Part shown: piece after piece, positions 1 through 63,675 of the stretch | Layout of the letters: the number at the start of each line of letters is the position of its first letter | Numbering within the stretch: position 1 is the first letter of the stretch | Assembly: GCA_041661425.1 (NCBI GenBank) | Contig: JBAZUI010000005.1 | Location: 1 to 63,967 of the forward strand | Direction: 5' to 3' | DNA: 63,967 nucleotides | DNA from: Patescibacteria group bacterium | Lineage (GTDB): Bacteria; Patescibacteriota; Patescibacteriia; UBA9934 | Notes under the pieces: generated by a model | The model's database searches: none | Told to the model about the DNA's origin: nothing | The model's input: the letters and a program-made list of their open reading frames with translations, nothing else | Program-made: the position numbers and the translations under genes

Positions 1-292
1 GAGACAGTTCGGTCTCCTATCTACTATGCACGTCGAAAGTTGCGGGAACTCATCCCTAGTACGAGAGGACCGGGATGAATTGACCTCTGGTGTGCCAGTT
101 GTCCTGCCAAGGGCATCGCTGGGTAGCTATGTCGAGTTCGGATAAGCGCTGAAAGCATCTAAGTGCGAAGCCGATCCCAAGATTAACTTTCATTATGAGA
201 CCCCTAAGAGACTATTAGGTTGATAGGCACTACGTGAAAGCGCGGTAACGCGTGAAGCGGAGGTGTACTAATCGGTCCAGCTCTCCACTCAT
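1..292 (+). rRNA. rrl: 23S rRNA, 3'-terminal ~290 nt (gene continues upstream of the window)
   Basis: Sarcin-ricin loop TAGTACGAGAGGACCGG at 57-73. GCTGAAAGCATCTAAG at 148-163, GGTTGATAGGC, and TACTAAT at 266-272. Colinear with bacterial 23S domain VI. The 3' boundary is approximate. Confidence 0.93.
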
Positions 293-471: not shown

Positions 472-592
472 AGGACTTTCACCTTTAGATGCAGAGCGAG
501 GAGAAAACCGAGCAACGAGGAGCCGTACACAGACGTACGGTGACGACGTGCGCAGGTTTTCGACAAAGCTATGCGCTAAAGGTGGAAGTCCT
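472..592 (+). repeat. Structured intergenic repeat, family A, copy in the 23S-5S spacer
   Basis: Outer arms AGGACTTTCACCTTTA / TAAAGGTGGAAGTCCT are complementary. The conserved core TGCAGAGCGAGGAGAAAACCGAGCAACGAGGAGCC ... GGTGACGACGTGCGCAGGTTTTCGACAAAGCTATGCGC is shared with copies at 4665-4783, 51047-51170 and 61004-61156. Confidence 0.85.
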
Positions 593-608
593 AAAGAATC
601 GTTATATT

Positions 609-719
609 GTTCTGGTGGCATTTCCTGCAGGGCAACACCCGTTCCCATCCCGAACACGGCCGTTAAGCCTGCGGGGCCGATGGTAGTCCATTAGGGCGAG
701 AGTAGGTAGTCGCCAGAAC
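609..719 (+). rRNA. rrf: 5S rRNA
   Basis: CCCGTTCCCATCCCGAACACGG, GCCGATGGTAGT and GAGAGTAGG motifs are present. Helix I pairs GTTCTGGTG (609-617) with CGCCAGAAC (711-719). Confidence 0.92.
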
Positions 720-742
720 AATGCAACGATTTTTTGTAAGAA

Positions 743-769
743 GGACGTCTTTATGACGCCCTTTTTTTG
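743..769 (+). terminator. Hairpin plus T-run after the 5S gene
   Basis: GGACGTC..GACGCCC stem followed by TTTTTTT. Confidence 0.5.
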
Positions 770-805
770 TGATAAAATTTGGTTGTTCGTCAATTATCAT
801 TATTT

Positions 806-1855
806 ATGGGAAAAGTTGTTGGAGGGTTTGGAAAACATAATCCCGAAGGACAATCAGAGGAATCGTACGAGCGCGGAGTCGCACGAAAAAGCGTCATTCA
901 ATTTTTAGCGGAGAAACCCCCAGCAGTTTCGCATCGGCTATTTCAAATACTGATTGAAAGAGCCCAAGAGACGCCGGAAGAGGTTGAATTGACGGGATTT
1001 TACAATCGAGTCGTTGATTTTCAAAAATTGCTCGATGAAAAAACATTTGAAGGTTTCGTAAAAACAAAATCAAAGAAATTTAATGATAAAAAAGGAATTC
1101 TGGAAGAAATCGAGGGAGTAACGGATGTCACAAGACAAACCGCTGCAGAAAATTTGTTCCTGGCGTGGGAAAATCTCTATGATGCGCAAGTGCACATTCT
1201 CGATATGGAAGGCATTGATGAAAATCACCCAGAAAGGGAGAGAAAAATTCAAGAAGCAACAAAAAAATGGGATGATCGGACAAAAGTATTTCGAGAACAG
1301 ATCATGAATATCGAGCAAGAACTTCGTCCGGTTATTGCAGCGTATGATCGCTTGGATTGGCAGGTAAAAGATAAGGCGAAACAGTACGGTCTTGATGGTG
1401 CTTTCGAACGTCTAAAATCAAGAATCCCAAGTGCCAAACCAAATATGGAACGCTATGTTCGGGATGTCGAAAAGCTTTTTTCTGATATTGAGCGTCACGA
1501 AAATGAGGCTCGGGTCGCACTTCCTCAACCAACTGAACAGCCAGAAGAGGTTCCTCTCACGCCAGAACAAGAACAGAAGATCGTGGGAGAGGTTCGAAGA
1601 TTAATCACGCAGGGAAAAATTAAAACTCTGAATCGATATTGCGAAGTTAGCGAGGCGATTTTTTGGGAGAATGGGCAATCGATTACAACAGATAATTTTG
1701 AAGGAAATCCCGCAAAGCTCATGAAGGGAAAGACGCGACATGGGGATCATGTTCTTGAAGAGAAGAGTTTATCTCTTGGAAAACTTGTTGTTATCGGAAG
1801 GATTGAACATCCTCGCGATCCACCATTTTTTTATCTTGTTTGGAAGCGAGAGTAG
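806..1855 (+). CDS. Hypothetical E/K-rich protein; sole cargo of the insertion bracketed by 5S 3'-end repeats
   Basis: Long ORF. The first ATG is at 806 (the track ORF starts at TTG 779). The TAG stop (1853-1855) lies inside the second copy of the 5S-derived repeat. No recognisable catalytic motif. Confidence 0.7.
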   Translation: MGKVVGGFGKHNPEGQSEESYERGVARKSVIQFLAEKPPAVSHRLFQILIERAQETPEEVELTGFYNRVVDFQKLLDEKTFEGFVKTKSKKFNDKKGILEEIEGVTDVTRQTAAENLFLAWENLYDAQVHILDMEGIDENHPERERKIQEATKKWDDRTKVFREQIMNIEQELRPVIAAYDRLDWQVKDKAKQYGLDGAFERLKSRIPSAKPNMERYVRDVEKLFSDIERHENEARVALPQPTEQPEEVPLTPEQEQKIVGEVRRLITQGKIKTLNRYCEVSEAIFWENGQSITTDNFEGNPAKLMKGKTRHGDHVLEEKSLSLGKLVVIGRIEHPRDPPFFYLVWKRE

Positions 1856-1887
1856 GTAGTCGCCAGAACAATGCAACGATTTTTTGT
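1846..1887 (+). repeat. Orphan duplicate of the 5S rRNA 3' end plus trailer (identical to 696-737)
   Basis: 42/42 nt identity: GCGAGAGTAGGTAGTCGCCAGAACAATGCAACGATTTTTTGT. The offset between copies is 1150 bp. Confidence 0.95.
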
Positions 1888-1896
1888 TTGGATGAA

Positions 1897-1918
1897 CGTC
1901 AAATTTTGACGCTTTTTA
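1897..1918 (+). terminator. Hairpin plus T-run after the orphan 5S fragment
   Basis: CGTCAA-ATT-TTGACG stem-loop followed by CTTTTTAT. Confidence 0.5.
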
Positions 1919-1946: not shown

Positions 1947-2381
1947 ATGAAACTCTATCATGGATCAAAAATTGATTTTTCTTCTATCCGGAAGAAGCAG
2001 GCGATGAAGGCCGACCACATTGTGGTTCCTGAGGGTGAATTATTGGATGCTATTTATCTAACGCCTGATTATGGCTTTGCTTTGGCGTGTGGCGCAAGAC
2101 CCGAAGGCGTTACGGACATAGACGACGACCACAAGGCGATAACATTTGAAAATCCCAAGCTTTTTGATCCAGAAGAAAGGGTCTACGTCTACGAAATTGA
2201 TACGGACAAAATTCCCGAGGGGCATATTAGAAAAATCGACGATCGGCAATATGCGATTGTTGATTTTGGAGAAATAGATATAGAGGAAAAACATGTGCAC
2301 AAAGCTGGAGATATTCAAGGATTTTACGAGTTGAAAAATTGGAAGGAAAAGCCGACAGAGATGAATGCTGAGTTAAAATGA
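1947..2381 (+). CDS. Hypothetical protein (N-terminal MKLYHGS motif)
   Basis: 144-aa ORF with ATG start. No confident family assignment. Confidence 0.6.
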   Translation: MKLYHGSKIDFSSIRKKQAMKADHIVVPEGELLDAIYLTPDYGFALACGARPEGVTDIDDDHKAITFENPKLFDPEERVYVYEIDTDKIPEGHIRKIDDRQYAIVDFGEIDIEEKHVHKAGDIQGFYELKNWKEKPTEMNAELK

Positions 2382-2455
2382 AGATAGCTTTTCCATTGGC
2401 ACGGGGTTACGAGTGATTGACTTTCAACGCTTTTTTTAGTATATTGTCGCCAACT

Positions 2456-3256: not shown

Positions 3257-4516
3257 ATGCAAGTCATTGCCGATCTTCATGTCCATTCTCGATTTTCTCG
3301 TGCTTGTTCCAAGGAATTGACGCTCGAGAATAATGCTTTGTGGTGCTCAAAAAAAGGCGTTGGGATTTTAGGGACCGGTGACTTTACGCATCCGGCGTGG
3401 TTTAAGGAAATAAAAGAAGAGCTCATCGAGGACGAACCGGGATTATTCCGGCTCAAATCTGGCCATTATCCTGATATTCGTTTTATCCTTTCGACCGAGG
3501 TCTCGCAGATTTATAAGAAGAATGGAAAGACGCGTCGCATCCACAATATTGTTTTTGCGCCTTCGCTCGACGTGGTTGAGAAGATTCACGCCTGGCTCGA
3601 TGATCATCACTTCAATCGTAAAGCAGATGGTCGACCGATTCTTGGCATCGATTCAGAAGTGTTGTTAAAAGCACTCAAAGAAATCGACAAACGTATTTAT
3701 CTCATCCCTGCGCACGCATGGACGCCGTGGTTTTCGGTATTTGGATCATATTCTGGATTTGATTCACTCGAGGAATGCTTTGGTGACATGACAAAAGAAA
3801 TATTTGCGATTGAAACCGGGCTCTCAAGCGATCCGCTCATGAATCGTTCACTTTCGCGTCTCGATCACATCGCACTCATTTCAAATTCCGACGCGCATAG
3901 TCCGCGTAACTTTGGACGTGAAGCAAATGTGTTTGAGATGAAAAAGAAATCATATGATGAATTATTTTCGATTTTAAAATCACGCGATCCGAAAAAGTTT
4001 TTGTCTACGATTGAGTTTTATCCAGAGGAAGGGAAGTATCATGCGGATGGTCATGCGGACTGTGAATTTTGGTGTGAGCCGGAAGAAACGATTCGTCTGG
4101 GCGGTATTTGTCCGAAGTGCAAAAAGCAATTGACCGTTGGCGTGCTCGCACGAGTGAAAAAACTAGCGGATCGTGAACGTCTAAAAATCATGCCGAAGAA
4201 TCAGATCCCGTTCAAATCCATTGTTCCTCTTCAAGAGGTCATTGCCAAGTCTCTTGGGGTTGTGGGGACCGGATCAAAAAAAGTTCAGGCGCAATATGAA
4301 AAGCTGCTTGAACTTGGAAATGAATTTTTTATTCTTCTGGACGCGGATTTGAAGATGATTGGAGAATTTTCTCCCCCAGCTGTTGTTGAATCTATCCGAC
4401 GTATGCGAGCAGGAAAGATGCATATTCGTCCCGGATATGATGGCGTGTATGGGCAGGTAGAATTTTATTTCGAAAACGACCCGCTACCAATTGCGAAACA
4501 AACCTCACTTCTCTAA
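3257..4516 (+). CDS. PHP-family phosphoesterase with Zn-ribbon (COG1379 / EndoQ-like)
   Basis: N-terminal ADLHVHSRFSRA PHP motif, GTGDFTHP, and a CPKC..Zn-ribbon-like CxxC. GAGGTG Shine-Dalgarno 5 nt before ATG 3257. Confidence 0.7.
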   Translation: MQVIADLHVHSRFSRACSKELTLENNALWCSKKGVGILGTGDFTHPAWFKEIKEELIEDEPGLFRLKSGHYPDIRFILSTEVSQIYKKNGKTRRIHNIVFAPSLDVVEKIHAWLDDHHFNRKADGRPILGIDSEVLLKALKEIDKRIYLIPAHAWTPWFSVFGSYSGFDSLEECFGDMTKEIFAIETGLSSDPLMNRSLSRLDHIALISNSDAHSPRNFGREANVFEMKKKSYDELFSILKSRDPKKFLSTIEFYPEEGKYHADGHADCEFWCEPEETIRLGGICPKCKKQLTVGVLARVKKLADRERLKIMPKNQIPFKSIVPLQEVIAKSLGVVGTGSKKVQAQYEKLLELGNEFFILLDADLKMIGEFSPPAVVESIRRMRAGKMHIRPGYDGVYGQVEFYFENDPLPIAKQTSLL

Positions 4517-4518
4517 CA

Positions 4519-4783
4519 CGAAGGACTTTTGTATTTGAGTGCAGAATGAGAAGAGGCAGAGGCTTTTCGCGAGACGAATACAAAACAAGGAGAAGCTTTA
4601 GATTTAGATGCAGCACGAGGAAAAAACCGAGCAACGAGGAGACGTGTGCAGATTTATTTTCGAAGGACTTTTGTATTTGAGTGCAGAACAAGGAGAAAAC
4701 CGAGTAGCAAGGAGCCGTACATAGATGTACGGTGACGAAGCACGGAGGTTTTCGACAAAGTTATGCGCCAAATACAGAAGTCC
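4519..4783 (+). repeat. Nested/tandem array of family A repeats (two truncated units plus one full unit at 4665-4783)
   Basis: CGAAGGACTTTTGTATTTGAGTGCAGAA occurs at 4519 and 4661 (142-bp period). A left-arm-only copy sits at ~4606-4645. Confidence 0.85.
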
Positions 4784-4794
4784 TTAAATAAAAA

Positions 4795-5608: not shown

Positions 5609-5613
5609 AGAAT

Positions 5614-5633
5614 TGGTGGACTTGAGGGGATTC
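5614..5633 (-). repeat. Orphan copy of the tRNA-Ala 3' end (T-loop to CCA)
   Basis: TGGTGGACTTGAGGGGATTC is identical to 5991-6010. Confidence 0.95.
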
Positions 5634-5990
5634 AGCTTCAGCTCTCGGCTTGCCGTCGCAAGCCTCGGCCCTGCCTACCGGCAGGCAGACTAGCCACCCG
5701 CCTTCGCAAGGCTTCGGCGGGCAGGCCGCCTACAATGGCGGAGTTTATCCACCGAAGCTCCGATTTATCCGTCGTAGCTTTAGCGAAGACGGAAGGAGCG
5801 AAGGAGGAGCGTTCGAATCCCTTCGCAAGCCAAATGGTTGACTTGCGTCTAATTTAATCAATAAATTTCCACGTATTTTGCTTCAGATACAAGGCATGGG
5901 TGGCAGTCGAGGAAACGTACCCAAATGTACGTTGACGAAAACTGACGGGACCCATAACACAGTAGCTTAACAAAATTCGTGGAAATTTCT
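5634..5990 (-). mobile_element. Insert between tRNA-Ala and its displaced 3' end: family B element (5634-5847) plus a family-A-like hairpin (5863-5988)
   Basis: The family B sequence is shared with 63358-63550 and 40810-40930. It abuts the tRNA fragment through the ...CCGAGAGCTGAAGC end (minus strand). Confidence 0.7.
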
Positions 5991-6067
5991 TGGTGGACTT
6001 GAGGGGATTCGAACCCCTGACCTCCTGCTTGCAAAGCAGGCGCTCTAACCAGCTGAGCTACAAGCCC
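5991..6067 (-). tRNA. tRNA-Ala (anticodon TGC), CCA encoded
   Basis: Manual fold: acceptor GGGCTTG/CAAGTCC, anticodon arm CCTGC-TTTGCAA-GCAGG, T-arm AGGGG-TTCGAAT-CCCCT. Confidence 0.95.
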
Positions 6068-6135: not shown

Positions 6136-7113
6136 TTATCGAAGCTTACGCACCTTAATCTCTTGCAAGCGTTTCTTTCCGGGTATTTTTTTAAGGATTC
6201 CTTTTTTTGCCCCGAAATATTGAATCACACTTTGGGCGTTGTGCATGGCGTATCGGAGAGCATCCTCGATAGAATATTCCTCCATGAGAGCGGCGAGAAA
6301 TCCGGAACCGAATGCATCACCCGCGCCTGTGCTTGAAATGACTTTTACAGCTTCTGGTCGTACAAACCAGAGCGCATCATTTTGAAAAGCATACGCTCCA
6401 CGCGGACCATCGGTTATGACGAGCAATAAATCTTTTTGTGCAATCCCACGACAGAGTTTTACCACATCTCGTGATTCGGTATTGAGAAGAAGTTGTGCTT
6501 CTTCTAAATTGATATTCATGATCGTGAGGTTGCGAATAATCGAAGAGAAATTTTCAATGCCTTTTTTTAATTCTTGCGCACCGGGATTGTAGCAGGTTCG
6601 AATATTGTGCGCGACGCAATATCGAATGACTTTTTGCGCAAGCGCAAGATCCCCTCCGAGAGAGGCAATATACATCCAACGCGCTTTCAATTTCTCGAAT
6701 GGGATATCTTTTTCATGGATGTGAGCGCTGGCTCCTCGCCACACCAAAGCAGACCGTTCTCCGTCTGGGGCAGTTAGCAAGACAGAAAATGCCGTCGGTT
6801 CTTGAGGGTCGCGTTTGATGAAGGTTGTTTCAATGTGTTCATTTTTAAGATCGCGAATGATTTCATCGCCAAAATCATCTTTTCCAACGCGGACGATGGC
6901 TCCAGTTTTCATGCCAAGTCGTGCAAAGGTGACGGCCGCATTCGTGGCACCACCTCCAGTTGAGATGACGCATTGATCAAGATCAACTTTTTCTCCCAAC
7001 GGAATACACTCAAATGCTCCAGGCGTCTGAGGATCGGGATCAATACGGGTGAATGCTTTTGAAACAAGAAATGCATCACGGGCTGCGGAACCAAGGGTAA
7101 GAATGTCGTACAT
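6136..7113 (-). CDS. PfkB-family carbohydrate kinase (ribokinase-like)
   Basis: GGGATNAAV and TGAGDAFGSGF motifs. ATG at 7113 lies inside the longer track ORF. Confidence 0.85.
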   Translation of the reverse strand: MYDILTLGSAARDAFLVSKAFTRIDPDPQTPGAFECIPLGEKVDLDQCVISTGGGATNAAVTFARLGMKTGAIVRVGKDDFGDEIIRDLKNEHIETTFIKRDPQEPTAFSVLLTAPDGERSALVWRGASAHIHEKDIPFEKLKARWMYIASLGGDLALAQKVIRYCVAHNIRTCYNPGAQELKKGIENFSSIIRNLTIMNINLEEAQLLLNTESRDVVKLCRGIAQKDLLLVITDGPRGAYAFQNDALWFVRPEAVKVISSTGAGDAFGSGFLAALMEEYSIEDALRYAMHNAQSVIQYFGAKKGILKKIPGKKRLQEIKVRKLR

Positions 7114-7120
7114 ACAAGAT

Positions 7121-7960
7121 TTATTTTGATGCTTTTTTTTGGGTTTTTTTCCACATCTCAATGCTTTCAGAAAATTCTTGAGCAATCTGTCGGATGGCTT
7201 CTTTTTTTGAAATGCGTTTCTTCTCGTAGAGCGTGAGCGTTGGCATAAAAATCGTTCGCCCGATTGCCATACCAGAGACCACGCCACTTTTTGCTGCGGT
7301 TTGGATCCAGGTGCGCACTTGTTTTTTTGATGCTCCACGACCAAGAACAATGAGTGGAATCTCGGTTGCTCGTGCGACTTGTTGCCATTCTTTTGTGGAA
7401 TTCAACCCTTCGACTTTCCAAAGATCAGGAAGAATTCCATCTTGTTGAAGATTCTTAATGGCGTCGATTAAGAGTTGATATTTCGGTTTCGATCCCTTTA
7501 CAAGAATTTCAATGAGAATTTTTATGTGCAAATCACGAGCGATCATTTGCAACTCTTTGAGGCGTTTATGGATGCGCGCGTGGGTTTCTTGCTTTTCCGG
7601 AGCGTAACGAATCAGGACCTTCGCATAGGTTGGCCGGAATCGTTTCAAATGGTCACTCAATGCATCAGAGTATTCAAACGCCAGCGACTCTCCACCGCTT
7701 TGTTCGGTTGTGAGCGCAAATGCTATTTTTTTTCTTCTGGCACTTTTTAGTATTTTTTTCCCAAATTCCTCATCGACAAGAATTGCGAATTCTTCTTTCT
7801 TTTTTGAGTTCCGATAGACTTCAATGAAGCCGGAAAAAATAATGCGCTTGAGGTGACGAATGCGTCGAGCCTCTCTGGATGCCACCGGGTAAGTTGTTCG
7901 CAATAGTTCTTCAGCGAATGAGGCTCGGTGATCAAAGGGGAGAAAAAAGAGATTTTTCAT
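7121..7960 (-). CDS. Aldolase-like protein (DUF2090 / IolC C-terminal-like, class I aldolase fold)
   Basis: Starts MKNLFFLPFDHRASF. ATG at 7960 overlaps the upstream stop (ATGA). The family call is from memory of the motif. Confidence 0.55.
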   Translation of the reverse strand: MKNLFFLPFDHRASFAEELLRTTYPVASREARRIRHLKRIIFSGFIEVYRNSKKKEEFAILVDEEFGKKILKSARRKKIAFALTTEQSGGESLAFEYSDALSDHLKRFRPTYAKVLIRYAPEKQETHARIHKRLKELQMIARDLHIKILIEILVKGSKPKYQLLIDAIKNLQQDGILPDLWKVEGLNSTKEWQQVARATEIPLIVLGRGASKKQVRTWIQTAAKSGVVSGMAIGRTIFMPTLTLYEKKRISKKEAIRQIAQEFSESIEMWKKTQKKASK

Positions 7961-8490
7961 AGAGATTTCAATTGCCGGCCATGATAAAGGAAAATGGGAA
8001 GAGCACCTTGTTCGGCAAAGGATGCTTCCGGTGTGATATTCGGGAGTGGCCAGGCTTCCACAAGTACCAGACAATCATCTTTGAGTCGCGGACCGATTTT
8101 TTTGATGATTTTTTTGTAGGAGTTTGGCATGAGAAAGAGCGTCACCACGTCGGCGCGGGAAGGATCAATGGAAAAAAGATTTCCAAAGCGAAGGGAGACT
8201 CCATGATATTTTTTTTGGTGCATGAGTATCCGAATCCAGCCGATGCAAAGAGGAATAAGAGAGATGTCGTACCCAATATATCTGAGTGTTGGCGCGGTTT
8301 CCTTGAGTCCGAATAAGAGCGAACCGTCCCCGCATCCCAAATCCATGACAATGCCTTGAGCAGGGAGGGGGATTTTTTTCAATTGGTTTCGTTCTCGTTT
8401 TCTTGTCGGGACCCATGGCGCGGCAGAGAGTCCGGCAATGGCCGCCGAAGCAATGAAACTCCAAACAAGAAGAAAAAGAATCCATTTCAT
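7957..8490 (-). CDS. Class I SAM-dependent methyltransferase with N-terminal membrane/signal segment
   Basis: VMDLGCGDGSLL motif I. Confidence 0.7.
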   Translation of the reverse strand: MKWILFLLVWSFIASAAIAGLSAAPWVPTRKRERNQLKKIPLPAQGIVMDLGCGDGSLLFGLKETAPTLRYIGYDISLIPLCIGWIRILMHQKKYHGVSLRFGNLFSIDPSRADVVTLFLMPNSYKKIIKKIGPRLKDDCLVLVEAWPLPNITPEASFAEQGALPIFLYHGRQLKSL

Positions 8491-20789: not shown

Positions 20790-21300
20790 CAAATTCTGAT
20801 CTAGTCATTGCTGCGCCTTACGACACCGCGACTGCAGGCGTCGGGCCATTGGGCCTTCTCGCAATGACGTGGGGGTATCGCGTCAAAACTCACCCTGCCG
20901 TCATTGCGAGCCCGCAGGGCGAAGCAATCCGTTCGAATAGATTGCTTCCCGCCTTCGCTCATTCCGTCTTCGCTAAAGCTACGACGGATAAATCGGAGCT
21001 TCGGACGGGCAGGCGTCGGCCATGAGGCCTTCTCGCAATGACGGCAGAAAGGAAGCTCCGAAGTTATCGTGTTGCTTATGTTGTCATTGCGGGGTGCGGA
21101 TGGGTCTATGCCATCCCTCTGCCATATCGCGAGGAACTTGTGAGAATTCTCGGTGGCGTAGCAACCCATCCCCCTGCCGTCATTGCGAGGAGTGGATGAA
21201 AAATTATTCGGTGACAGAGCGATCCGTGCCCCCTGCCGTCATTGCGAGGAACTGTCTTACATTTTTTGGTGACGAAGCAATCCAGTATTGCCAATGGGTG
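20790..21300. repeat. ~500-bp mosaic of hairpin-forming repeat modules upstream of the FG-GAP gene
   Basis: CGTCATTGCGAG occurs at 20899, 21178 and 21236, with its complement CTCGCAATGACG at 20858 and 21033. GCAGGCGTCGG..GGCCTTCTCGCAATGACG is repeated at 20835 and 21010. A family B/C hairpin module sits at 20964-20992. Confidence 0.8.
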
Positions 21301-21403
21301 TTCTACGTCCCAACGCCGATTCTTTGCTGTGTATAAAGCGAAAAATCTTTGGATTGTCGTGTTATACTTAATCCATCATTTGTCTTATTTGCATTGCAAA
21401 GAA

Positions 21404-22276
21404 ATGAGCAGACCAATTCCTAAATTTAATATCCAAAAAGCATCCATTGCCATGATGTTTGCTTTGTTGTGTTTTATCCCTTTTGCTTTTGCGGCAACAA
21501 CGCACAATCTGTCGCTTTTTGTTGAGTTTACCGGTGAGAGCACAAATAGTAATTATGCGGGGCGGACGGTCGCCCCTGCCGGCGATGTAAACGGTGATGG
21601 TTACAAAGATTTCCTTATTGGAGCGTATGGCAATAATGATGGTGGCGCCAATACAGGTGCGGTGTATCTCATTTACGGTTCAGCAACACCGTTTACCAGC
21701 AGAAACCTTACAAATGACATAAAATTTTGGGGAGAAGCTGTTGGAGATTTGGTCGGCGAAACCTCTATTGCTTCTGCCGGGGACGTGAATGGTGACGGAT
21801 ACGATGATATTCTTATTGGCGCCTATAGAAATGATGATGCCGGAGCAGATGCCGGTGCCGCATATTTGATTTACGGCCAGGCGGCTACGCTTACCAGTGC
21901 TTCGCTTTCAACAGCAATCGAATTTACCGGTGAAGTCGCCGGAGATAAAGCCGGTTATTTCGTTGCCTCAGCAGGGGATGTGAACTTCGATACGTATGAT
22001 GACTTTTTGGTCGGCGCCTATATGAATGACGATGGCCCCGGTGACAATGGCGGTGCCGCCTATCTCATTTACGGTCAGGCTGATCCACTTGTGAGTGCAT
22101 CACTCTCAACCGCCGTGGAGTTTACCGGTGAAGTTGCCGGAGATAACGCTGGTACTAGTGTTTCTTCAGCTGGGGATGTAAATAACGACACATATAGCGA
22201 TATTCTCGTTGGTGCACAATCGAATGACGATGGCCCTGGTGACGATGGCGGCGCGGCTTATCTTATCTATGGCTAG
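21404..22276 (+). CDS. FG-GAP repeat surface protein, N-terminal part (signal peptide plus 4 repeats), ending at an in-frame TAG
   Basis: MSRPIPKFNIQKASIAMMFALLCFIPFAFA signal. Repeats of the form AGDVNGDGYDD..GAAYLIYGQA. The TAG at 22274-22276 replaces the CAG (Q) of the repeat consensus. Confidence 0.8.
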   Translation: MSRPIPKFNIQKASIAMMFALLCFIPFAFAATTHNLSLFVEFTGESTNSNYAGRTVAPAGDVNGDGYKDFLIGAYGNNDGGANTGAVYLIYGSATPFTSRNLTNDIKFWGEAVGDLVGETSIASAGDVNGDGYDDILIGAYRNDDAGADAGAAYLIYGQAATLTSASLSTAIEFTGEVAGDKAGYFVASAGDVNFDTYDDFLVGAYMNDDGPGDNGGAAYLIYGQADPLVSASLSTAVEFTGEVAGDNAGTSVSSAGDVNNDTYSDILVGAQSNDDGPGDDGGAAYLIYG

Positions 22277-22312
22277 GCCGCGCCACTCGTTAGTGCCTCG
22301 CTCTCAACGGCT

Positions 22313-25300
22313 GTGGAATTTACCGGTGAAGTTGCCGGAAACCAGGCCGGGTATTCTGTTTCTTCAGCCGGGGATGTGAATAACGATACTTACGATGACT
22401 TTTTAGTCGGAGCTTTCTTGAATAGTGACGGCGCGAGCATGGCCGGCGCTGTTTATTTAATTTACGGTCAGGCCGCTCCGCTTGTCGCCGCTTCACTTTC
22501 AACTGCGGTGGAGTTTACCGGTGAAGGTGTAATGGACTTTGCAGGCACCAGTGTTTCTTCAGCTGGGGATGTGAATAACGACACATATGATGATTTTCTC
22601 GTTAATGCAGCTTTTAACGATGATGGCCCGGGTAATGATGGAGGAGCGGCTTATCTCATTTACGGTCAGGCCGCGCCACTCGTTAGTGCTTCTCTTTCGA
22701 CCGCAGTTGAGTTCATCGGTGAAGCCGCTATTGATTATGCGGGCTACACGGTTGCCTCGGCCGGGGATGTGAATAACGACACTTATGATGATTTCCTGGT
22801 CGGCGCCTTTATGCATCATGGATATGGTGCCGATTCCGGTTCGGCTTATTTTATTTATGGTCAAGCTAGCGCACTCACGAGCGCGTCACTTTCAACCGCG
22901 GTTAATTTTGGTGGGGAAGCTTATGAGAATACCGCTGTGGCGTCTGATGACTCCGCGGGGAGTGACATTGGCAATGCTGGAGATGTGAACGGCGATGGGT
23001 ATGATGATTTCCTTGTAGTGGCAAATGCGAATGATGACGGTGGCAGCTCATCAGGATCGGCGTATCTTGTGTATGGTCAAGCTTCGCTTCTTGCGGGAAC
23101 ATCATTGTCAAATGCGGTTGAATATATCGGTGAAACGGTGTCGGATATGGTTAATCTTGCGAAAACAGCCGGAGACGTGAATGGTGATGGGTATGATGAT
23201 TTTCTCATCACAGCTTCTTTTAACGATAGCGGTGCTTCAAACGCCGGCGCCGTGTATCTTATTTACGGTCAGGCCGCACCATTGGCTGGTGGATCGCTAT
23301 CAAGTGTGGCAGTGAAATATACTGGGGAAGGTATTAACTACAAAGCCGGTGTCGCTCTTGCATACGGAGATATCAATGGCGATGAATATAGCGATTTTCT
23401 TATTGATGCCGCTTCAAGTAGTGATGGAAAAACCGTTGTTTATCTTGTGTATGGTCAAGCCGCACCATTGGCTGGTGGATCGCTATCAACGGCTGTTGCA
23501 TTAACCGGTGCGCCAGCGGGTGGCTATAATACTCCAGTTTCGGTCGGCGATGTAAACGGAGATGGGTATGATGATATTTTAATCGGAAATTATACTTTAA
23601 ACATTGCCTATCTTCTCTACGGTCAGGCCGCATCATTTGTGAGCGGATCCTATCTCGCATCATCCGTTCAGTTCACACCTGAGGTGAGTGGCGATTTGGC
23701 AGGAATGGACGTTGCGTTGGCGGATATCAACGGCGATGGATATCGCGACATGATTATTTCCGCCACACAAAATGACGATGGCGCAGTGAATGCCGGTGCG
23801 ATTTATCTGATTTATGGACAAGCCGCCGCACTTACAAACGCCTCTCTTTCGACTGCAATAGAATTTATGGGCATAAATGCCACAGCGTCCGGAGCCTCAA
23901 TTGGACTCGCTGATCATTGTGATGTTAATAACGATGGATACGACGATCTTTTTATTGGATTTAAAGATGACAATACCACCTATTACACTCTTGGTCAGGC
24001 AGCTCCCCTTGTTGGTGGATCGCTTTCAACATTCAATACATTCACGGGTGAAGTTGTTGGCGATAGTGCCGGTGATTCTGTCTCTTGTGCCGGTGATGTG
24101 AACGGCGACAATTATAATGAAATAATCATCGGTGCAACAGGAAATGATGATGCTGGATCCGGTGCCGGTGCCGCCTATCTTGGCTATCTCTACGTTGACT
24201 CCGATCACGATGGCATGCCGGGAACAGCCGGCATTCTCGACGGCAATGATTTTGACGATAATGACCCGAGCGTTCAGGATAGTTGGATTTCGAATTTGAG
24301 CGTTGGTGGTTCCTCGGATGGGTGGGGTGGAGTACTCATTCAATTTACCCTCGACGATCCAGACGATGATGATACCGATCAGGCAAGAATTCAATATAGC
24401 CTTGATAACGGCGCAACATGGGCAGATCCAACACTCAGCACATCAGATGCCGATACTACCGCAACCTATGGCGATCCGGATATTAATAATTCCGTTGCGT
24501 ATCAGGTTGGACAATCCGGTGCCTACATTACAACGTCTTCCGGAGCAAATACGATTCAGGTTCGATGGAATTCCGCGGTTGATGTTCCAACAGCGGCAAC
24601 ACAAACCGCAAAAATTCGCGTGACCCCTTATGACGGGACTTCAGAAGGAACCTCAGCAACAAGCTCAGCGTTTTCACTCAATAACCTCGAATCAAATCCC
24701 AGCGATTCCACTCCATCACAACCAAAGGTCACGCCGGAACTGACGGGCCTCGTCATCTCTCAAGGCAATGGCACTACGACCGGTACTCTCACCGAAGGGG
24801 AGTGGACAAGTGTTTCTTGGCTCACACTCGGCTCCGTTCCGTATGTGCTTGTTTCTTATTCAACAGATAATGGATCCACCTGGCAGACGCTTGTTGGTCC
24901 CATCGCAAATCGCAGTAATATCGCCTTTACCATGCCAAGTGATCTGGGTGACACCTTCATGCTCAAGGTTGAAGGAACTGATCTTGCTCTTGTTCTCGAT
25001 ACGCTCACGAGTGATCCAATTATCATCCTCGAACAGACAACCACCCCACCAACATCAACGACTCCGGTCGTAACTCCACCAGCCACGTACGTCCCAGTGG
25101 TTCCGGTTTATGCTCCCTCTCCCATTCTTGGTTACCAGTTCCCAACAACTCCAACGGATACAACATCGGCTACTCAAACTCCCGCAGAAACAGGCGATGA
25201 ACCATCTCCCATCCTTACCTATACCTCTCCCGAGGCCGCATCTCCCGTCACAGGTGAACAGGAAGAGGTGACTGAAGTCTTCCCTGGAGACTATATCAAG

Positions 25301-25684
25301 AGTCCATATTTCCCAACGGTCTATTATGTCACGGAAAACATGGAGCGCCGTCCATTCATGGACGCTCAAACCTACTTTACCTATGAGAGTTCGTTTAATG
25401 CCGTAAAGATCGTTTCTGATGCCACGCTTCCTCTCCTCAATCTTGCCGGTCCCATGCTTCCAAAGCCTTCGACCGTTCTTGTGAAAATCCAGAGTGATCC
25501 AAAGGTCTATCTCGTCTCCACAAATCCCGACAGTGAATATCGCCCCATTCTTCATTGGATCTCGAGCGAGGAATTGGCCGTCAAGATGTACGGCCCTCAA
25601 TGGCCACAATACGTGATTGATATTCCTGTTACTCTATTCGCACGATTTGAGATTGGAGACAAGATTGCCCTGAATCCGAATTGA
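22313..25684 (+). CDS. FG-GAP repeat surface protein, continuation (same frame as 21404-22276; 10 more repeats, T/P-rich linker, C-terminal conserved domain)
   Basis: Frame is continuous from 22277 (AAPLVSASLSTAVEFTGE...). Track ORF start 22313 is a GTG inside the repeat. Confidence 0.85.
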   Translation: MEFTGEVAGNQAGYSVSSAGDVNNDTYDDFLVGAFLNSDGASMAGAVYLIYGQAAPLVAASLSTAVEFTGEGVMDFAGTSVSSAGDVNNDTYDDFLVNAAFNDDGPGNDGGAAYLIYGQAAPLVSASLSTAVEFIGEAAIDYAGYTVASAGDVNNDTYDDFLVGAFMHHGYGADSGSAYFIYGQASALTSASLSTAVNFGGEAYENTAVASDDSAGSDIGNAGDVNGDGYDDFLVVANANDDGGSSSGSAYLVYGQASLLAGTSLSNAVEYIGETVSDMVNLAKTAGDVNGDGYDDFLITASFNDSGASNAGAVYLIYGQAAPLAGGSLSSVAVKYTGEGINYKAGVALAYGDINGDEYSDFLIDAASSSDGKTVVYLVYGQAAPLAGGSLSTAVALTGAPAGGYNTPVSVGDVNGDGYDDILIGNYTLNIAYLLYGQAASFVSGSYLASSVQFTPEVSGDLAGMDVALADINGDGYRDMIISATQNDDGAVNAGAIYLIYGQAAALTNASLSTAIEFMGINATASGASIGLADHCDVNNDGYDDLFIGFKDDNTTYYTLGQAAPLVGGSLSTFNTFTGEVVGDSAGDSVSCAGDVNGDNYNEIIIGATGNDDAGSGAGAAYLGYLYVDSDHDGMPGTAGILDGNDFDDNDPSVQDSWISNLSVGGSSDGWGGVLIQFTLDDPDDDDTDQARIQYSLDNGATWADPTLSTSDADTTATYGDPDINNSVAYQVGQSGAYITTSSGANTIQVRWNSAVDVPTAATQTAKIRVTPYDGTSEGTSATSSAFSLNNLESNPSDSTPSQPKVTPELTGLVISQGNGTTTGTLTEGEWTSVSWLTLGSVPYVLVSYSTDNGSTWQTLVGPIANRSNIAFTMPSDLGDTFMLKVEGTDLALVLDTLTSDPIIILEQTTTPPTSTTPVVTPPATYVPVVPVYAPSPILGYQFPTTPTDTTSATQTPAETGDEPSPILTYTSPEAASPVTGEQEEVTEVFPGDYIKSPYFPTVYYVTENMERRPFMDAQTYFTYESSFNAVKIVSDATLPLLNLAGPMLPKPSTVLVKIQSDPKVYLVSTNPDSEYRPILHWISSEELAVKMYGPQWPQYVIDIPVTLFARFEIGDKIALNPN

Positions 25685-35134: not shown

Positions 35135-35645
35135 GTATTCAGGAAATGCGTAAGCCGAATTCTGTTCCAAATGCCGAAGCATTGGGGCGGTCATCTCTCT
35201 AGGGCGTCTCTTGCGAGACGTCTCATGCGAGCTACCTAATTTGCTCTTGCACCAAGGCAGGTTTGCCACCGCTCCATGTCGCCATGGAGGGAGACTGGTG
35301 GCTCCCGTCAGGGAACCTCCAATCACTTTTCACCTTTTGTTCTACGCAGTGGAACAATCCTGAGTACCGAGCTTGTCGAGGTATCGAAGGGTCACGTTGC
35401 ACCTCTCGACTCGCTTTGCTCGCTCGGGATCGTTTTACTGCGTAAAACTAGTATTGTCTCTGTGGCGCTATCTCTGGGTTTCGGGAAGGGACCGAGGAAC
35501 GGATAAATCCAGTTCCTTGAACTCTTCCTATGTCCCGGTTGCCGTTAGCAACGCCTTTTGATTTTCGATCTTGCGATCGAAAAGGTGTTCGGACTTTCCT
35601 CTTGGGATCCGAAGATTCCAAGTAACCACCACCATTTCCTGAATG
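35135..35645 (-). ncRNA. rnpB: RNase P RNA, bacterial type A, unusually long (~510 nt)
   Basis: On the minus strand: GAGGAAAGTCCGAACAC (P4 5'), GGTGCAAGAGCAAATTAGG, CTAGAGAGATGACCGCCC, and ACAGAATTCGGCTTAC (P4 3'). P1 pairs ATTCAGGAAATG with CATTTCCTGAAT. Confidence 0.9.
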
Positions 35646-40577: not shown

Positions 40578-40788
40578 GGTGCCGGGCAGGATGGCTGTAT
40601 CATTCTTCGTTCCGACTGACGAGGTAGGCTTGAATGGCCTGTTCGCGTCCTCCTACGCTCCTCAGCATTACCTCGGAGCTTCGGAGGACAGCCGTAGCTT
40701 CAGCCGACAAGCAGGGTGGCTTGCCAGCCGTTTTATCCACCGTAACTCTAGTGAAGGTGGAAGCTTCAGCGATAGCTGAAGCGAAGGC
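40578..40788 (-). repeat. Family C tRNA-trailer element (copy 3), following the displaced tRNA-Leu 3' fragment
   Basis: Minus strand begins GCCTTCGCTTCAGCTATCGCTGAAGCTTCCACCTTCACTAGAGTTACGGTGGATAAAACGG..., near-identical to 51257-51470. Confidence 0.85.
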
Positions 40789-40809
40789 TGGTGGGCGGAG
40801 AGGGACTCG
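40789..40809 (-). repeat. Orphan copy of the tRNA-Leu(CAG) 3' end (T-loop to CCA)
   Basis: TGGTGGGCGGAGAGGGACTCG is identical to 40936-40956. Confidence 0.95.
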
Positions 40810-40935
40810 GCCTCGACTCTCGGCTTGCCGTCGCAAGCCTCGGTCTGGCCACCGCCTCGCCATTCTGCCTGCTGGCAGAATATGGCTCCGGCGTTCGAGT
40901 CCATTAACAAGCCAAATGGTTGGCTTGTCGACCCT
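40810..40935 (-). mobile_element. Short family B element inserted between tRNA-Leu(CAG) and its displaced 3' end
   Basis: Shares CTCGGCTTGCCGTCGCAAGCCTCGG and GTTCGAGTCC..ACAAGCCAAATGGTTGGCTTGT with the B copies at 5634 and 63358. Confidence 0.7.
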
Positions 40936-41021
40936 TGGTGGGCGGAGAGGGACTCGAACCCTCAAGAGATTACTCTCACAAGCTTCTGAAACTTGCGTGT
41001 CTACCGTTTCACCATCCGCCC
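40936..41021 (-). tRNA. tRNA-Leu (anticodon CAG), long variable arm, CCA encoded
   Basis: Manual fold: acceptor GGGCGGA.., anticodon arm CAAGT-TTCAGAA-GCTTG, T-arm GAGGG-TTCGAGT-CCCTC. Confidence 0.9.
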
Positions 41022-50125: not shown

Positions 50126-50202
50126 GGGTCTGTAGCTCAGTTGGTTAGAGCGCCGAGCTTATACCTCGGTGGTCGATGGTTCGAGTCCATCCAGACCCAC
50201 CA
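50126..50202 (+). tRNA. tRNA-Ile (anticodon TAT), CCA encoded
   Basis: Manual fold: acceptor GGGTCTG/CAGACCC, anticodon arm CCGAG-CTTATAC-CTCGG, T-arm GATGG-TTCGAGT-CCATC. The body resembles bacterial tRNA-Ile. Confidence 0.85.
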
Positions 50203-50365
50203 GCCTTCGCTTCAGCTATCGCTGAAGCTACGGCTGGCAGGCCATCCTGCCTTCCACCTTCACTAAAGTTACGGTGGATAAAACGGCTGGCAGGCCACCC
50301 TGTCAGCTGAAGCGAAGGCTGTCCTCCGAAGCTCCGAGGCAATGCCGAGGAGCGTAGGAGGACAT
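50203..50365 (+). repeat. Family C tRNA-trailer element (copy 1), starting at the nucleotide after CCA
   Basis: GCCTTCGCTTCAGCTATCGCTGAAGC...CCACCTTCACTAAAGTTACGGTGGATAAAACGG...GCTGAAGCGAAGGCTGTCCTCCGAAGCTCCGAGGC...GGAGGAC. Confidence 0.85.
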
Positions 50366-50416
50366 GAACTGAATTAGTTATTGCCGAAGTTTCCGCTTTT
50401 CATCGATACCGCTTCT

Positions 50417-51046: not shown

Positions 51047-51170
51047 GAGAACTTTTCCTTTTGGATGCAGAACAAGGAAGAACCAAGGCTTTTTGTGAGA
51101 CGTACCCAAATGTACGTTGAACAAAAAACGAAGGTTCTGACGAAGCTATGCGCCAAAAGGAGAAGTTCTC
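51047..51170 (+). repeat. Family A structured repeat (variant core), between the membrane-protein gene and tRNA-Val
   Basis: Outer arms GAGAACTTTTCCTTTTGG / CCAAAAGGAGAAGTTCTC. Core GATGCAGAACAAGG...ACGTACCCAAATGTACGT...GACGAAGCTATGCGCC. Confidence 0.8.
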
Positions 51171-51256: not shown

Positions 51257-51490
51257 GCCTTCGCTTCAGCTATCGCTGAAGCTTCCACCTTCACTAGAGT
51301 TACGGTGGATAAAACGGCTGGCAAGCCATCCTGCTTGTCGGCTGAAGCGAAGGCTGTCCTCCGAAGCTCCGAGGCAACGCCGAGGAGCGTAGGAGGACGC
51401 GAATAGGCCATCAAGTCTGCCATCTCGTCAGTCGGAACGAAGGATGCCCTCCGAAGCCCCGTTTACAGCGGGGCGAAGGAGGGCAGGATT
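51257..51490 (+). repeat. Family C tRNA-trailer element (copy 2), starting at the nucleotide after CCA
   Basis: Same sequence family as 50203-50365 and 40578-40788, with an extended 3' part (CTCGTCAGTCGGAACGAAGGATG...). Confidence 0.85.
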
Positions 51491-63166: not shown

Positions 63167-63336
63167 CCGCCTGCACAAGGGCGGAGTTTATCCACCGAAG
63201 CTCCGATTTATCCGTCGTAGCTTTAGTGAAGACGGAAGGAGCGAAGGAGGAGCGTTCGAATCCCACGCAAGCCAAATTGTTGGCTTGCTATGAAATACCA
63301 ACCCACAAGGTTCCAATGATTTGAAACATTCTGGGT
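63167..63336 (-). mobile_element. Older, 5'-truncated tandem copy of the family B element plus spacer
   Basis: Near-identical to 63429-63598 (262-bp period). Confidence 0.75.
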
Positions 63337-63357
63337 TGGTGGACGCCAAGGGATTCG
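63337..63357 (-). repeat. Orphan copy of the tRNA-Val(TAC) 3' end (T-loop to CCA)
   Basis: TGGTGGACGCCAAGGGATTCG is identical to 63599-63619. Confidence 0.95.
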
Positions 63358-63598
63358 GCTTCAGCTCTCGGCTTGCCGTCGCAAGCCTCGGCTTAGCCAC
63401 CCGCCTTCGCAAGGCTTCGGCGGGCAGGCCGCCTGCACAAGGGCGGAGTTTATCCACCGAAGCTCCGATTTATCCGTCGTAGCTTTAGCGAAGACGGAAG
63501 GAGCGAAGGAGGAGCGTTCGAATCCCACGCAAGCCAAATTGTTGGCTTGCTATGAAATACCAACCCACAAAGTTCCAATGATTTGAAACATTCTGGGT
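63358..63598 (-). mobile_element. Family B element (63358-63550) plus spacer, inserted between tRNA-Val(TAC) and its displaced 3' end
   Basis: Shares almost its whole length with 5634-5847. Confidence 0.75.
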
Positions 63599-63675
63599 TG
63601 GTGGACGCCAAGGGATTCGAACCCCTGACCTTCTCGGTGTAAACGAGACGCTCTAACCAGCTGAGCTAGGCGTCC
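63599..63675 (-). tRNA. tRNA-Val (anticodon TAC), CCA encoded
   Basis: Manual fold: acceptor GGACGCC/GGCGTCC, anticodon arm TCTCG-TTTACAC-CGAGA, T-arm AGGGG-TTCGAAT-CCCTT. Confidence 0.93.

Follow-up and report, generated by a model that had tools for sequence, protein, structure and literature searches.

A lineage-specific gene inserted behind the 5S rRNA gene of an Uhrbacteria lineage and flanked by an exact 42-nt direct repeat

The DNA behind the rRNA operon of an uncultured member of the Candidatus Uhrbacteria (Patescibacteria, CPR) contains an additional gene located between two exact copies of the 3' end of the 5S rRNA gene. It is best classed as the insertion of a gene specific to this lineage, bounded by direct repeats and situated at a hotspot just downstream of the operon. 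The insertion is most probably real and recent, and a one-off event in one Uhrbacteria lineage. It is located close to the left end of a stretch of 63,967 nt, which is referred to as the window in the following. The contig was placed in this group by the neighbouring glmU-like gene, whose product is 58-63% identical to that of the nearest species-representative genomes. Our leading, still tentative explanation is that a very close relative supplied DNA which, in a single recombination event, placed a further "post-5S" gene cassette in front of the one already present at this site.

The repeat comprises positions 696-737 and 1846-1887, which are identical at 42 of 42 nt in direct orientation; its edges are sharp and exact, and the flanking sequences are unrelated. 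No further copy was detected within the window at up to three mismatches (100 shuffled sequences gave an expectation of 0), nor did a search of the window reveal a degenerate third copy. The rRNA operon extends into the window with the 3' end of the 23S rRNA gene (positions 1-292, plus strand; Rfam LSU_rRNA_bacteria, 259 bits), which is followed by an intact 5S rRNA gene (611-718, plus strand) matching the full Rfam model RF00001 (72.6 bits, model positions 1-120). From these bounds it follows that copy 1 (plus strand) consists of the last 23-24 nt of the 5S gene and approximately 18 nt of trailer. Copy 2 (plus strand) is an orphan 5S 3' fragment with trailer, which holds the stop codon of the inserted ORFan gene. 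In all these respects, the exact match and the Rfam search agree with the initial annotation, which had described an exact repeat with one copy on an intact 5S gene and an orphan second copy.

Copy 1 is at the same time part of a predicted processing stem. In the fold of positions 586-775 (z = -6.4), the 5S leader (592-617, plus strand; inverted repeat I1) forms the 5' strand of an extended pre-5S processing stem, pairing with 711-736, which comprise the 3' side of helix I as well as all of the trailer to this point, in both the minimum free energy (MFE) and the centroid fold. The outermost pair of this stem is 592-736, the 3' 26 nt of the repeat pair with the 5S leader, and the insert begins at 738. 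The apparent T-run in the trailer is part of the stem in this fold, and the real terminator candidate after the 5S gene is a predicted hairpin at 739-769 (hairpin A, plus strand), a terminator-like stem-loop with T-run in the MFE fold and the first feature of the inserted DNA. A second terminator-like hairpin with T-run (hairpin B, 1897-1918, plus strand) was recovered behind copy 2 by a terminator scan (1897-1911 plus T-tail), so that a hairpin and T-run indeed follow each copy, as had been noted initially. Hairpins A and B resemble each other no more than might be expected by chance (p ~0.1). The orphan copy 2 itself shows no significant structure (z = 0.19) and has no pairing partner. The right edge of the repeat at 737 coincides with the base of the processing stem and with the point where all relatives diverge; this edge can therefore reflect conservation and not the point of crossover. 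At the other junction (1845/1846), no microhomology is visible on the recipient side.

The order 23S rRNA gene, 5S rRNA gene, variable gap and glmU-like gene is kept in seven relatives (including L002, L003, L004, L006, L008 and L009), in which the 5S gene and the glmU-like gene are separated by as little as 248 bp (L006) and as much as 2,057 bp, occupied by unrelated genes; divergence always begins directly after the 5S trailer. Judged from this comparison, the DNA behind the 5S trailer is a gene-turnover hotspot in the group, with a different gene present behind the rRNA operon of every relative. In the window, the second gene of the variable segment encodes a lineage-specific protein of 144 aa (1947-2381, plus strand; preceded by TGCTAAAAT at 1932-1940); this gene is absent from all relatives, and its product shows only sub-threshold matches to ART-PolyVal and DUF3990. 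The right end of the variable segment is marked by the promoter-like site of the glmU-like gene (2417-2445, plus strand; TTGACT-17-TATATT).

The closest relative is a metagenome contig (L030) that is 92% identical in the 3' end of the 23S rRNA gene, 96.5% in the 5S gene plus trailer and 81% in the glmU-like gene, and in which positions 636-737 are identical to the window. As the 42 nt are conserved exactly despite the divergence of the 23S and glmU-like sequences, this stretch is constrained and can be shared exactly by two lineages. L030 contains the 42 nt only once, followed by TTG as after copy 2 and then by 662 bp with a different gene, before its similarity to the window returns at position 2417 (BLAST), at the glmU promoter. 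L030 thus has the 5S gene, the 42 nt and TTG without the insert, but as it also differs from the window from position 1891 on, it does not represent an empty site in the strict sense. The TTG at 1888-1890 (plus strand) continues the ancestral 5S trailer: positions 1846-1890 match L030 at 45 of 45 nt, and the same three nucleotides are present in L003, L031, L046 and L009. Indeed, the trailers of L030, L003/L031, L046 and L009 match the right flank of copy 2 (TTG...) 3-8 nt further than that of copy 1, and therefore copy 2 together with its flank looks like the ancestral context, with the new DNA lying between the two copies.

The insert is carried by none of the relatives, and an arrangement common to all of them, which the initial annotation had allowed for, was not seen. 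The exact 33-nt pattern of the 5S end is absent from species-representative genomes, so that the present genome does not belong to this set. The lack of the arrangement in the relatives makes it very improbable that the 5S end was duplicated and fixed long ago, its copies kept identical by selection or gene conversion while the ORFan evolved in place between them. In favour of such an old duplication are exact 5S-like 11-mers within the ORF (1560-1570 and, as reverse complement, 1456-1466; enrichment p ~0.002-0.01), but the arrangement is missing even from L030 with its identical 42-mer, and the orphan copy offers selection neither a structure nor a partner to act on.

The 1,108 bp between the repeat copies contain a single long ORF on the plus strand, which extends, in accordance with the first description, from 806 to 1855 and whose TAG stop (1853-1855) lies within copy 2. 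It encodes an E/K-rich protein of 349 aa when read from the ATG at 806; a TTG at 779 is an alternative start. The synonymous-codon log-likelihood of the ORF is -1.075 in frame, compared to -1.062 +/- 0.053 for host genes, and -1.49 and -1.40 in the two other frames. Because its codon choice agrees with that of the host in the correct frame only, the ORFan is a genuine coding sequence. Its GC3 of 0.34 is 2.5 SD below the host mean (0.457 +/- 0.046), and low GC3 is frequent in acquired genes. An extended -10-like element, TGATAAAAT, is located 5' of the ORFan at 770-778 (plus strand) and is, according to its motif, a putative promoter. Motifs of this type occur six times in the window, three of them just 5' of the starts of consecutive plus strand genes, and the ORFan shares the same extended -10-like motif with the next two genes. 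Codon use and promoter type of the ORFan therewith look like those of the host. In addition, the layout behind both repeat copies is the same: a hairpin is followed by a T-run, the motif TGnTAAAAT and a gene.

Relatives of the ORFan protein were sought extensively. Among ~5.8 billion proteins only the protein itself was matched, and an exhaustive phmmer search against 1.84 billion representatives likewise returned the self-match only; a tblastn search against phages and plasmids gave no match. In Pfam, PHROGs, PADLOC, NCBIfam and the sequences of the PDB there were only noise-level matches of the coiled-coil type, in keeping with the earlier remark that the cargo shows no recombinase signature. 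The protein is predicted to consist mostly of long helices with a small C-terminal beta domain; an AF2 model from the single sequence had a mean pLDDT of 42 and was unusable.

The arrangement is known from assembled contigs, namely the 64-kb contig and an independent k=31 assembly (Logan) of SRR18595301. In the latter, contig L033 corresponds to positions 708-1887 with 0 mismatches and a second contig, L034, begins at 1858. L033 is exactly 1150+30 nt long, its two ends overlapping by 30 nt so that it can be closed to a circle, and it passes the second repeat without the break that would be expected if the 5S body joined the repeat in that graph. All of this would suit an assembly effect or an extrachromosomal form, in which the ORFan and one repeat copy exist as a circle of 1,150 bp, or as an array of tandem units, that was threaded once into the contig, especially as k=31 is too short to resolve a repeat of 42 nt. 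We nevertheless consider this explanation unlikely. In the 64-kb contig the insert is part of the chromosome, and the repeat would be bridged by reads of ordinary length or by any k larger than 42; L033 breaks exactly at the boundary of repeat and insert, which implies a chromosomal exit branch in that graph; and a circle of 1.15 kb would lack any replication protein that can be recognised and does not fold into a rod.

The latter point also disposes of an Obelisk- or viroid-like circular RNA, which was ruled out by its fold: the circular MFE of the 1,150 nt is -297 kcal/mol, compared to -279 +/- 11 for shuffled sequences (~1.6 SD below mononucleotide shuffles), and other genomic segments of 1,150 nt fold more strongly (mean -354). 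A self-splicing or group II intron or a ribozyme was ruled out as well, as there is no Rfam match in 738-1887 at gathering score or at E <= 1.

Signatures of mobility were searched for in the insert, in the window and in other genomes. There is no XerD-like protein among the window ORFs of at least 80 aa, and a Pfam scan of 20 window ORFs gave no domain typical of recombinases, transposases or Cas1; the insert itself contains no transposase or Cas1 domain (Pfam). Terminal inverted repeats are lacking at 738 and 1845, and the ends of the insert have no copy elsewhere in the window or in ~150 loci. A second copy of the 5S end was found at none of 119 other 5S loci sharing the 3' motif (mean of 4.6 kb downstream sequence per locus; at most three mismatches in 24 nt), and the 5S 3' motif is present in none of 2.9 million viral contigs. 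A DDE transposon or insertion sequence does not fit an insert that has neither a transposase domain nor terminal inverted repeats, and a casposon does not fit one with a 42 bp duplication in which Cas1 and terminal inverted repeats are missing. We therefore regard as improbable a long target-site duplication, i.e. staggered cuts 42 bp apart (at 695/696 and 737/738) by a transposase- or casposase-like enzyme, insertion of 1,108 bp and duplication upon repair. The sharp and exact repeat edges with their unrelated flanks are what such a process would leave behind, and precedent exists, as Cas1-type integrases and some IS4-group elements create long duplications. Besides the missing enzyme and inverted repeats, however, the insert ends have no second copy, and 42 bp is far above typical duplications.

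The initial annotation had related the 5S repeat to similar duplications at three tRNA genes of the same window. These are real: the 3' end of a tRNA-Ala gene is duplicated at 5613-5633 and 5990-6010 (21 nt), that of a tRNA-Leu gene at 40789-40809 and 40936-40956 (21 nt), and that of a tRNA-Val gene at 63337-63357 and 63599-63619, here inside a 262-nt tandem unit. They do not represent the same footprint, though, but belong to a conserved non-coding module, termed E1, in whose closing helix they form the 3' strand. The module ends with an invariant hairpin (CCGAGGCTTGCGACGGCAAGCCGAGAG), a short linker and a tRNA copy of 19-21 nt. This copy reproduces the upstream tRNA exactly, beginning at a set position in the T-loop and running through the 3' end. 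In other Patescibacteria, E1 with a tRNA copy was found after tRNA-Tyr (L035), tRNA-Ser (L036, L038) and tRNA-Arg (L036) genes, and E1 cores without tRNA copy after tRNA-Arg genes (L037, L036) and after rpsI (L039).

A five-sequence alignment folds into a hairpin and a three-way junction. The 3' strand of the closing helix is the tRNA copy and its 5' strand the complement thereof, reaching the acceptor strand in the tRNA-Ser copies. When 11 copies were aligned to this model, 89% of cells could pair and compensatory changes were present in 42 of 50 pairs; the covariation score is 0.523, whereas shuffles reach 0.174 and slid controls 0.07-0.10, with the proviso that fitting the alignment to the model is in favour of the structure. 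E1 has no match in Rfam, and nothing relevant on an E1-like motif was found in the literature; it is apparently an uncatalogued, covarying structured RNA. The module is missing at the loci of the nearest relatives and in 627 kb around 100 other 5S genes, and given this patchy distribution it is probably mobile. Its architecture points to a templated, tRNA-directed process. No E1-like RNA is present near the 5S gene of the window. The tRNA cases are consequently a separate phenomenon that does not explain the 5S event, and the earlier generalisation from them, that 3' ends of structured-RNA genes may be a preferred insertion target in this genome, does not extend to it.

With respect to the 5S repeat itself, the initial annotation had seen the footprint of att-type recombination or of a very long target duplication. 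The trailers of the relatives bear out that the intact 5S gene gained DNA at its 3' side and that a 5S 3'-end copy was displaced downstream, while they do not demonstrate either of the two mechanisms. An att-type integration, in which a small circle carrying the 42-nt site entered the 5S 3' end by means of an integrase acting in trans, or in which a larger island decayed and lost its integrase gene by deletion, is a possible alternative, though we give it less weight than recombination. The repeat spans and overruns the 3' end of a stable-RNA gene, which is regenerated and has its orphan counterpart downstream, and a length of 42 nt is not unusual for att identity blocks at tRNA and tmRNA integration sites. 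The self-closing Logan contig 708-1887 with its 30-nt overlap is what an excised circle would produce, and the E1 modules at tRNA 3' ends of the same genome look mobile.

Against att-type integration, the direct repeat across the 3' end of the target RNA gene is not accompanied by a recombinase gene within the 64-kb window, as is evident from the negative XerD and Pfam searches above, and the cargo is one ORFan without recombinase motif. Viral contigs do not contain this 5S end, the other 5S loci are not duplicated, and the repeat includes a lineage-specific trailer identical to that of the host, so that the element would have to originate from the same lineage. A literature search for 5S as attachment site yielded nothing relevant. 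A bolder and improbable variant holds that the ORFan and one 42-nt site form a minimal integrative element of a novel type, which would be excised as a 1,150-bp circle, would re-enter at the pre-5S processing stem and, taken together with the E1 modules at tRNA T-loops, would reflect a CPR-specific targeting of 3' ends of stable-RNA genes. In the same, equally improbable proposal, mobility would be provided either by the ORFan protein, as an enzyme of a type not recognised so far, or by an enzyme encoded elsewhere. If the insert does excise, it would be among the smallest known integrative elements, with 5S as an unusual attachment site.

Recombination with DNA from a very close relative is ranked first because the 42 nt are constrained, as demonstrated by their exact conservation in L030, and because the right edge of the repeat is an edge of conservation. 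The similar layout after both copies, the host-like cargo, the uniqueness of the event and the failure to find mobility genes are further reasons for this ranking. The incoming DNA would have carried its own conserved 5S end, with hairpin A and the ORFan behind it. Of the two joins, one would have formed by homology in the conserved rRNA or in flanking DNA, the other illegitimately at 1845/1846. Both 5S ends would have been kept, which would leave two alternative post-5S cassettes in tandem, first the ORFan and then the 144-aa gene. The cassette would have arrived ready-made, consisting of a terminator hairpin, a host-type promoter and the single ORFan gene. The ORFan would be passive cargo, its arrival being due to ordinary recombination and not to a function encoded by the insert, and the right edge at 737 would be where the constraint on the processing stem ends and not where the DNA was cleaved. 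The donor and the combination of homologous and illegitimate joining are inferred, whereas the repeat, the intact 5S gene, the coding nature of the ORFan, the direction of the insertion, the variable hotspot and the lack of mobility genes were observed.

Small variable segments flanked by direct repeats belong to ordinary bacterial diversity and make up 10-18% of such segments (PMC2884548), and after transformation two alleles may remain side by side in tandem, with repeats at their borders (PMC3784515). Several observations speak against the recombination scenario. No donor haplotype, i.e. a 5S gene followed by the ORFan without second repeat, was seen, and it would have to be coincidence that an illegitimate joint falls within a 5S gene and that a complete-looking ORF ends 10 nt further on. 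The low GC3 of the ORFan and the non-significant likeness of hairpins A and B also count against it. Moreover, the duplicated 3' end of a stable-RNA gene is a classic mark of integrase-mediated insertion.

The 5S event cleanly illustrates the way in which orphan genes specific to one lineage are acquired by tiny CPR genomes, with the recombination joint still visible. Of the two leads, the more interesting one is E1, an RNA that looks uncatalogued and is located behind tRNA genes in several Patescibacteria.

Among known systems, casposons and CRISPR spacer integration share with the 5S insertion a long direct duplication beside the 3' end of a conserved gene, but in the present case Cas1 and terminal inverted repeats are lacking and the duplication measures 42 bp instead of 14-15 bp. 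Tyrosine-integrase islands and prophages in the 3' ends of tRNA and tmRNA genes resemble it more in their architecture: the repeat consists of the RNA gene 3' end plus trailer, the gene remains intact and an orphan fragment is found at the far end. In contrast to these islands, the target here is 5S rRNA, the insert has a size of 1.1 kb with one ORFan as its sole gene, the window ORFs include no integrase that could be found, the arrangement was seen in no other genome, and no viral contig had a matching site. The cis-mobilisable, integrase-less CIMEs related to ICESt1 are likewise flanked by repeats and devoid of recombination genes of their own; for the insertion described here, whose mobility is hypothetical, no cognate integrase-bearing element or second copy was found. 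Homology-facilitated illegitimate recombination in natural transformation, which is attributed in PMC2884548 to de Vries and Wackernagel (2002) and Prudhomme et al. (2002), usually results in the replacement of recipient DNA, whereas here 42 nt were duplicated. As proposed for the Uhrbacteria insertion, however, a conserved anchor (rRNA or a flanking gene) and one illegitimate joint add a strain-specific gene at a hotspot between conserved genes without the help of mobility genes.

Downstream of tRNA genes, and in one case behind rpsI, we detected a non-coding RNA module of 130-220 nt, termed E1, which folds into a hairpin and a three-way junction with covariation and contains an invariant hairpin (GGCTTGCGACGGCAAGCC). 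In the window, E1 modules lie on the minus strand, 3' of tRNA genes, at 5613-5860, 40789-40931 and 63337-63553, with a partial tandem unit at 63167-63336. Loci of other Patescibacteria, across which the distribution of the module is patchy, contain it in L035 (7043-7243), L036 (four copies; 2322-2467, 6402-6545, 7482-7630 and 7892-8000), L037 (5935-6077), L038 (3670-3815) and L039 (2286-2426). The 19-21 nt at the end of many copies are identical to the upstream tRNA from the T-loop to the 3' end; this tRNA copy provides one strand of the closing helix, and the opposite strand is formed by sequence complementary to it. E1, for which Rfam holds no entry, may be a mobile, tRNA-directed RNA element.

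A second repeat family, E2, consists of long GC-rich hairpins (gccttcgcttcagc...gctgaagcgaaggc, followed by tgtcctcc...ggaggaca) and is found at window positions 50203-50370, 51257-51405 and 40700-40788 (minus strand), and behind tRNA-Thr in L035. E2 hairpins begin immediately behind the CCA of tRNA-Ile and tRNA-Val(gac). An E2 copy also begins directly after the orphan tRNA-Leu fragment, which suggests that tRNA-Leu and its E2 trailer were split by insertion of E1 between them. The tRNA-Ile gene (50126-50202, plus strand), predicted by ARAGORN, has the anticodon TAT (UAU), an uncommon route to reading AUA in bacteria.

The 23S-5S spacer holds a palindromic element of approximately 190 nt (408-596), related copies of which lie at 4519-4790 and around 51050-51170. 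It is missing from the 23S-5S spacer of the close relative L030, a metagenome contig with a related copy at another site (3710-3811). The element is another small structured repeat adjoining stable-RNA genes.

Within the ORFan between the two 5S repeats, short exact pieces of the 5S region occur at 1456-1466 (as the reverse complement of CATCCCGAACA), 1560-1570 (CGCCAGAACAA) and 1656-1665 (CGATTTTTTG), exceeding what is seen in codon shuffles or other window segments (p about 0.002-0.01). In the Logan assembly of run SRR18595301, the k=31 contig L033 corresponds to window positions 708-1887 and a second contig, L034, starts at 1858. L033 continues without interruption out of the insert and across the second repeat, with a terminal overlap of 30 nt; in that graph, therefore, no link connects the 5S body with the repeat. 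This pattern could be explained by a closed loop of 1,150 bp present at a depth above that of the chromosome, or may instead be a by-product of graph cleaning. The orphan repeat is followed by a likewise lineage-specific 144-aa gene (1947-2381, plus strand), found in none of the relatives, whose N-terminus resembles the ADP-ribosyltransferase-like families ART-PolyVal and DUF3990 at sub-threshold level only (E = 0.14).

Elsewhere in the window, a gene for a giant repeat protein (21242-25684, plus strand) is interrupted by one in-frame TAG (22274-22276) where the other repeat units have CAG. The protein's repeat units measure about 66 aa, and it contains the motif GDVNGDGYDD, which is FG-GAP/VCBS-like. 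The interruption could reflect a pseudogene, an error in sequencing or read-through of the stop codon. The RNase P RNA (35135-35642, minus strand) measures 508 nt compared with the 367 positions of the model, and thus carries large insertions.
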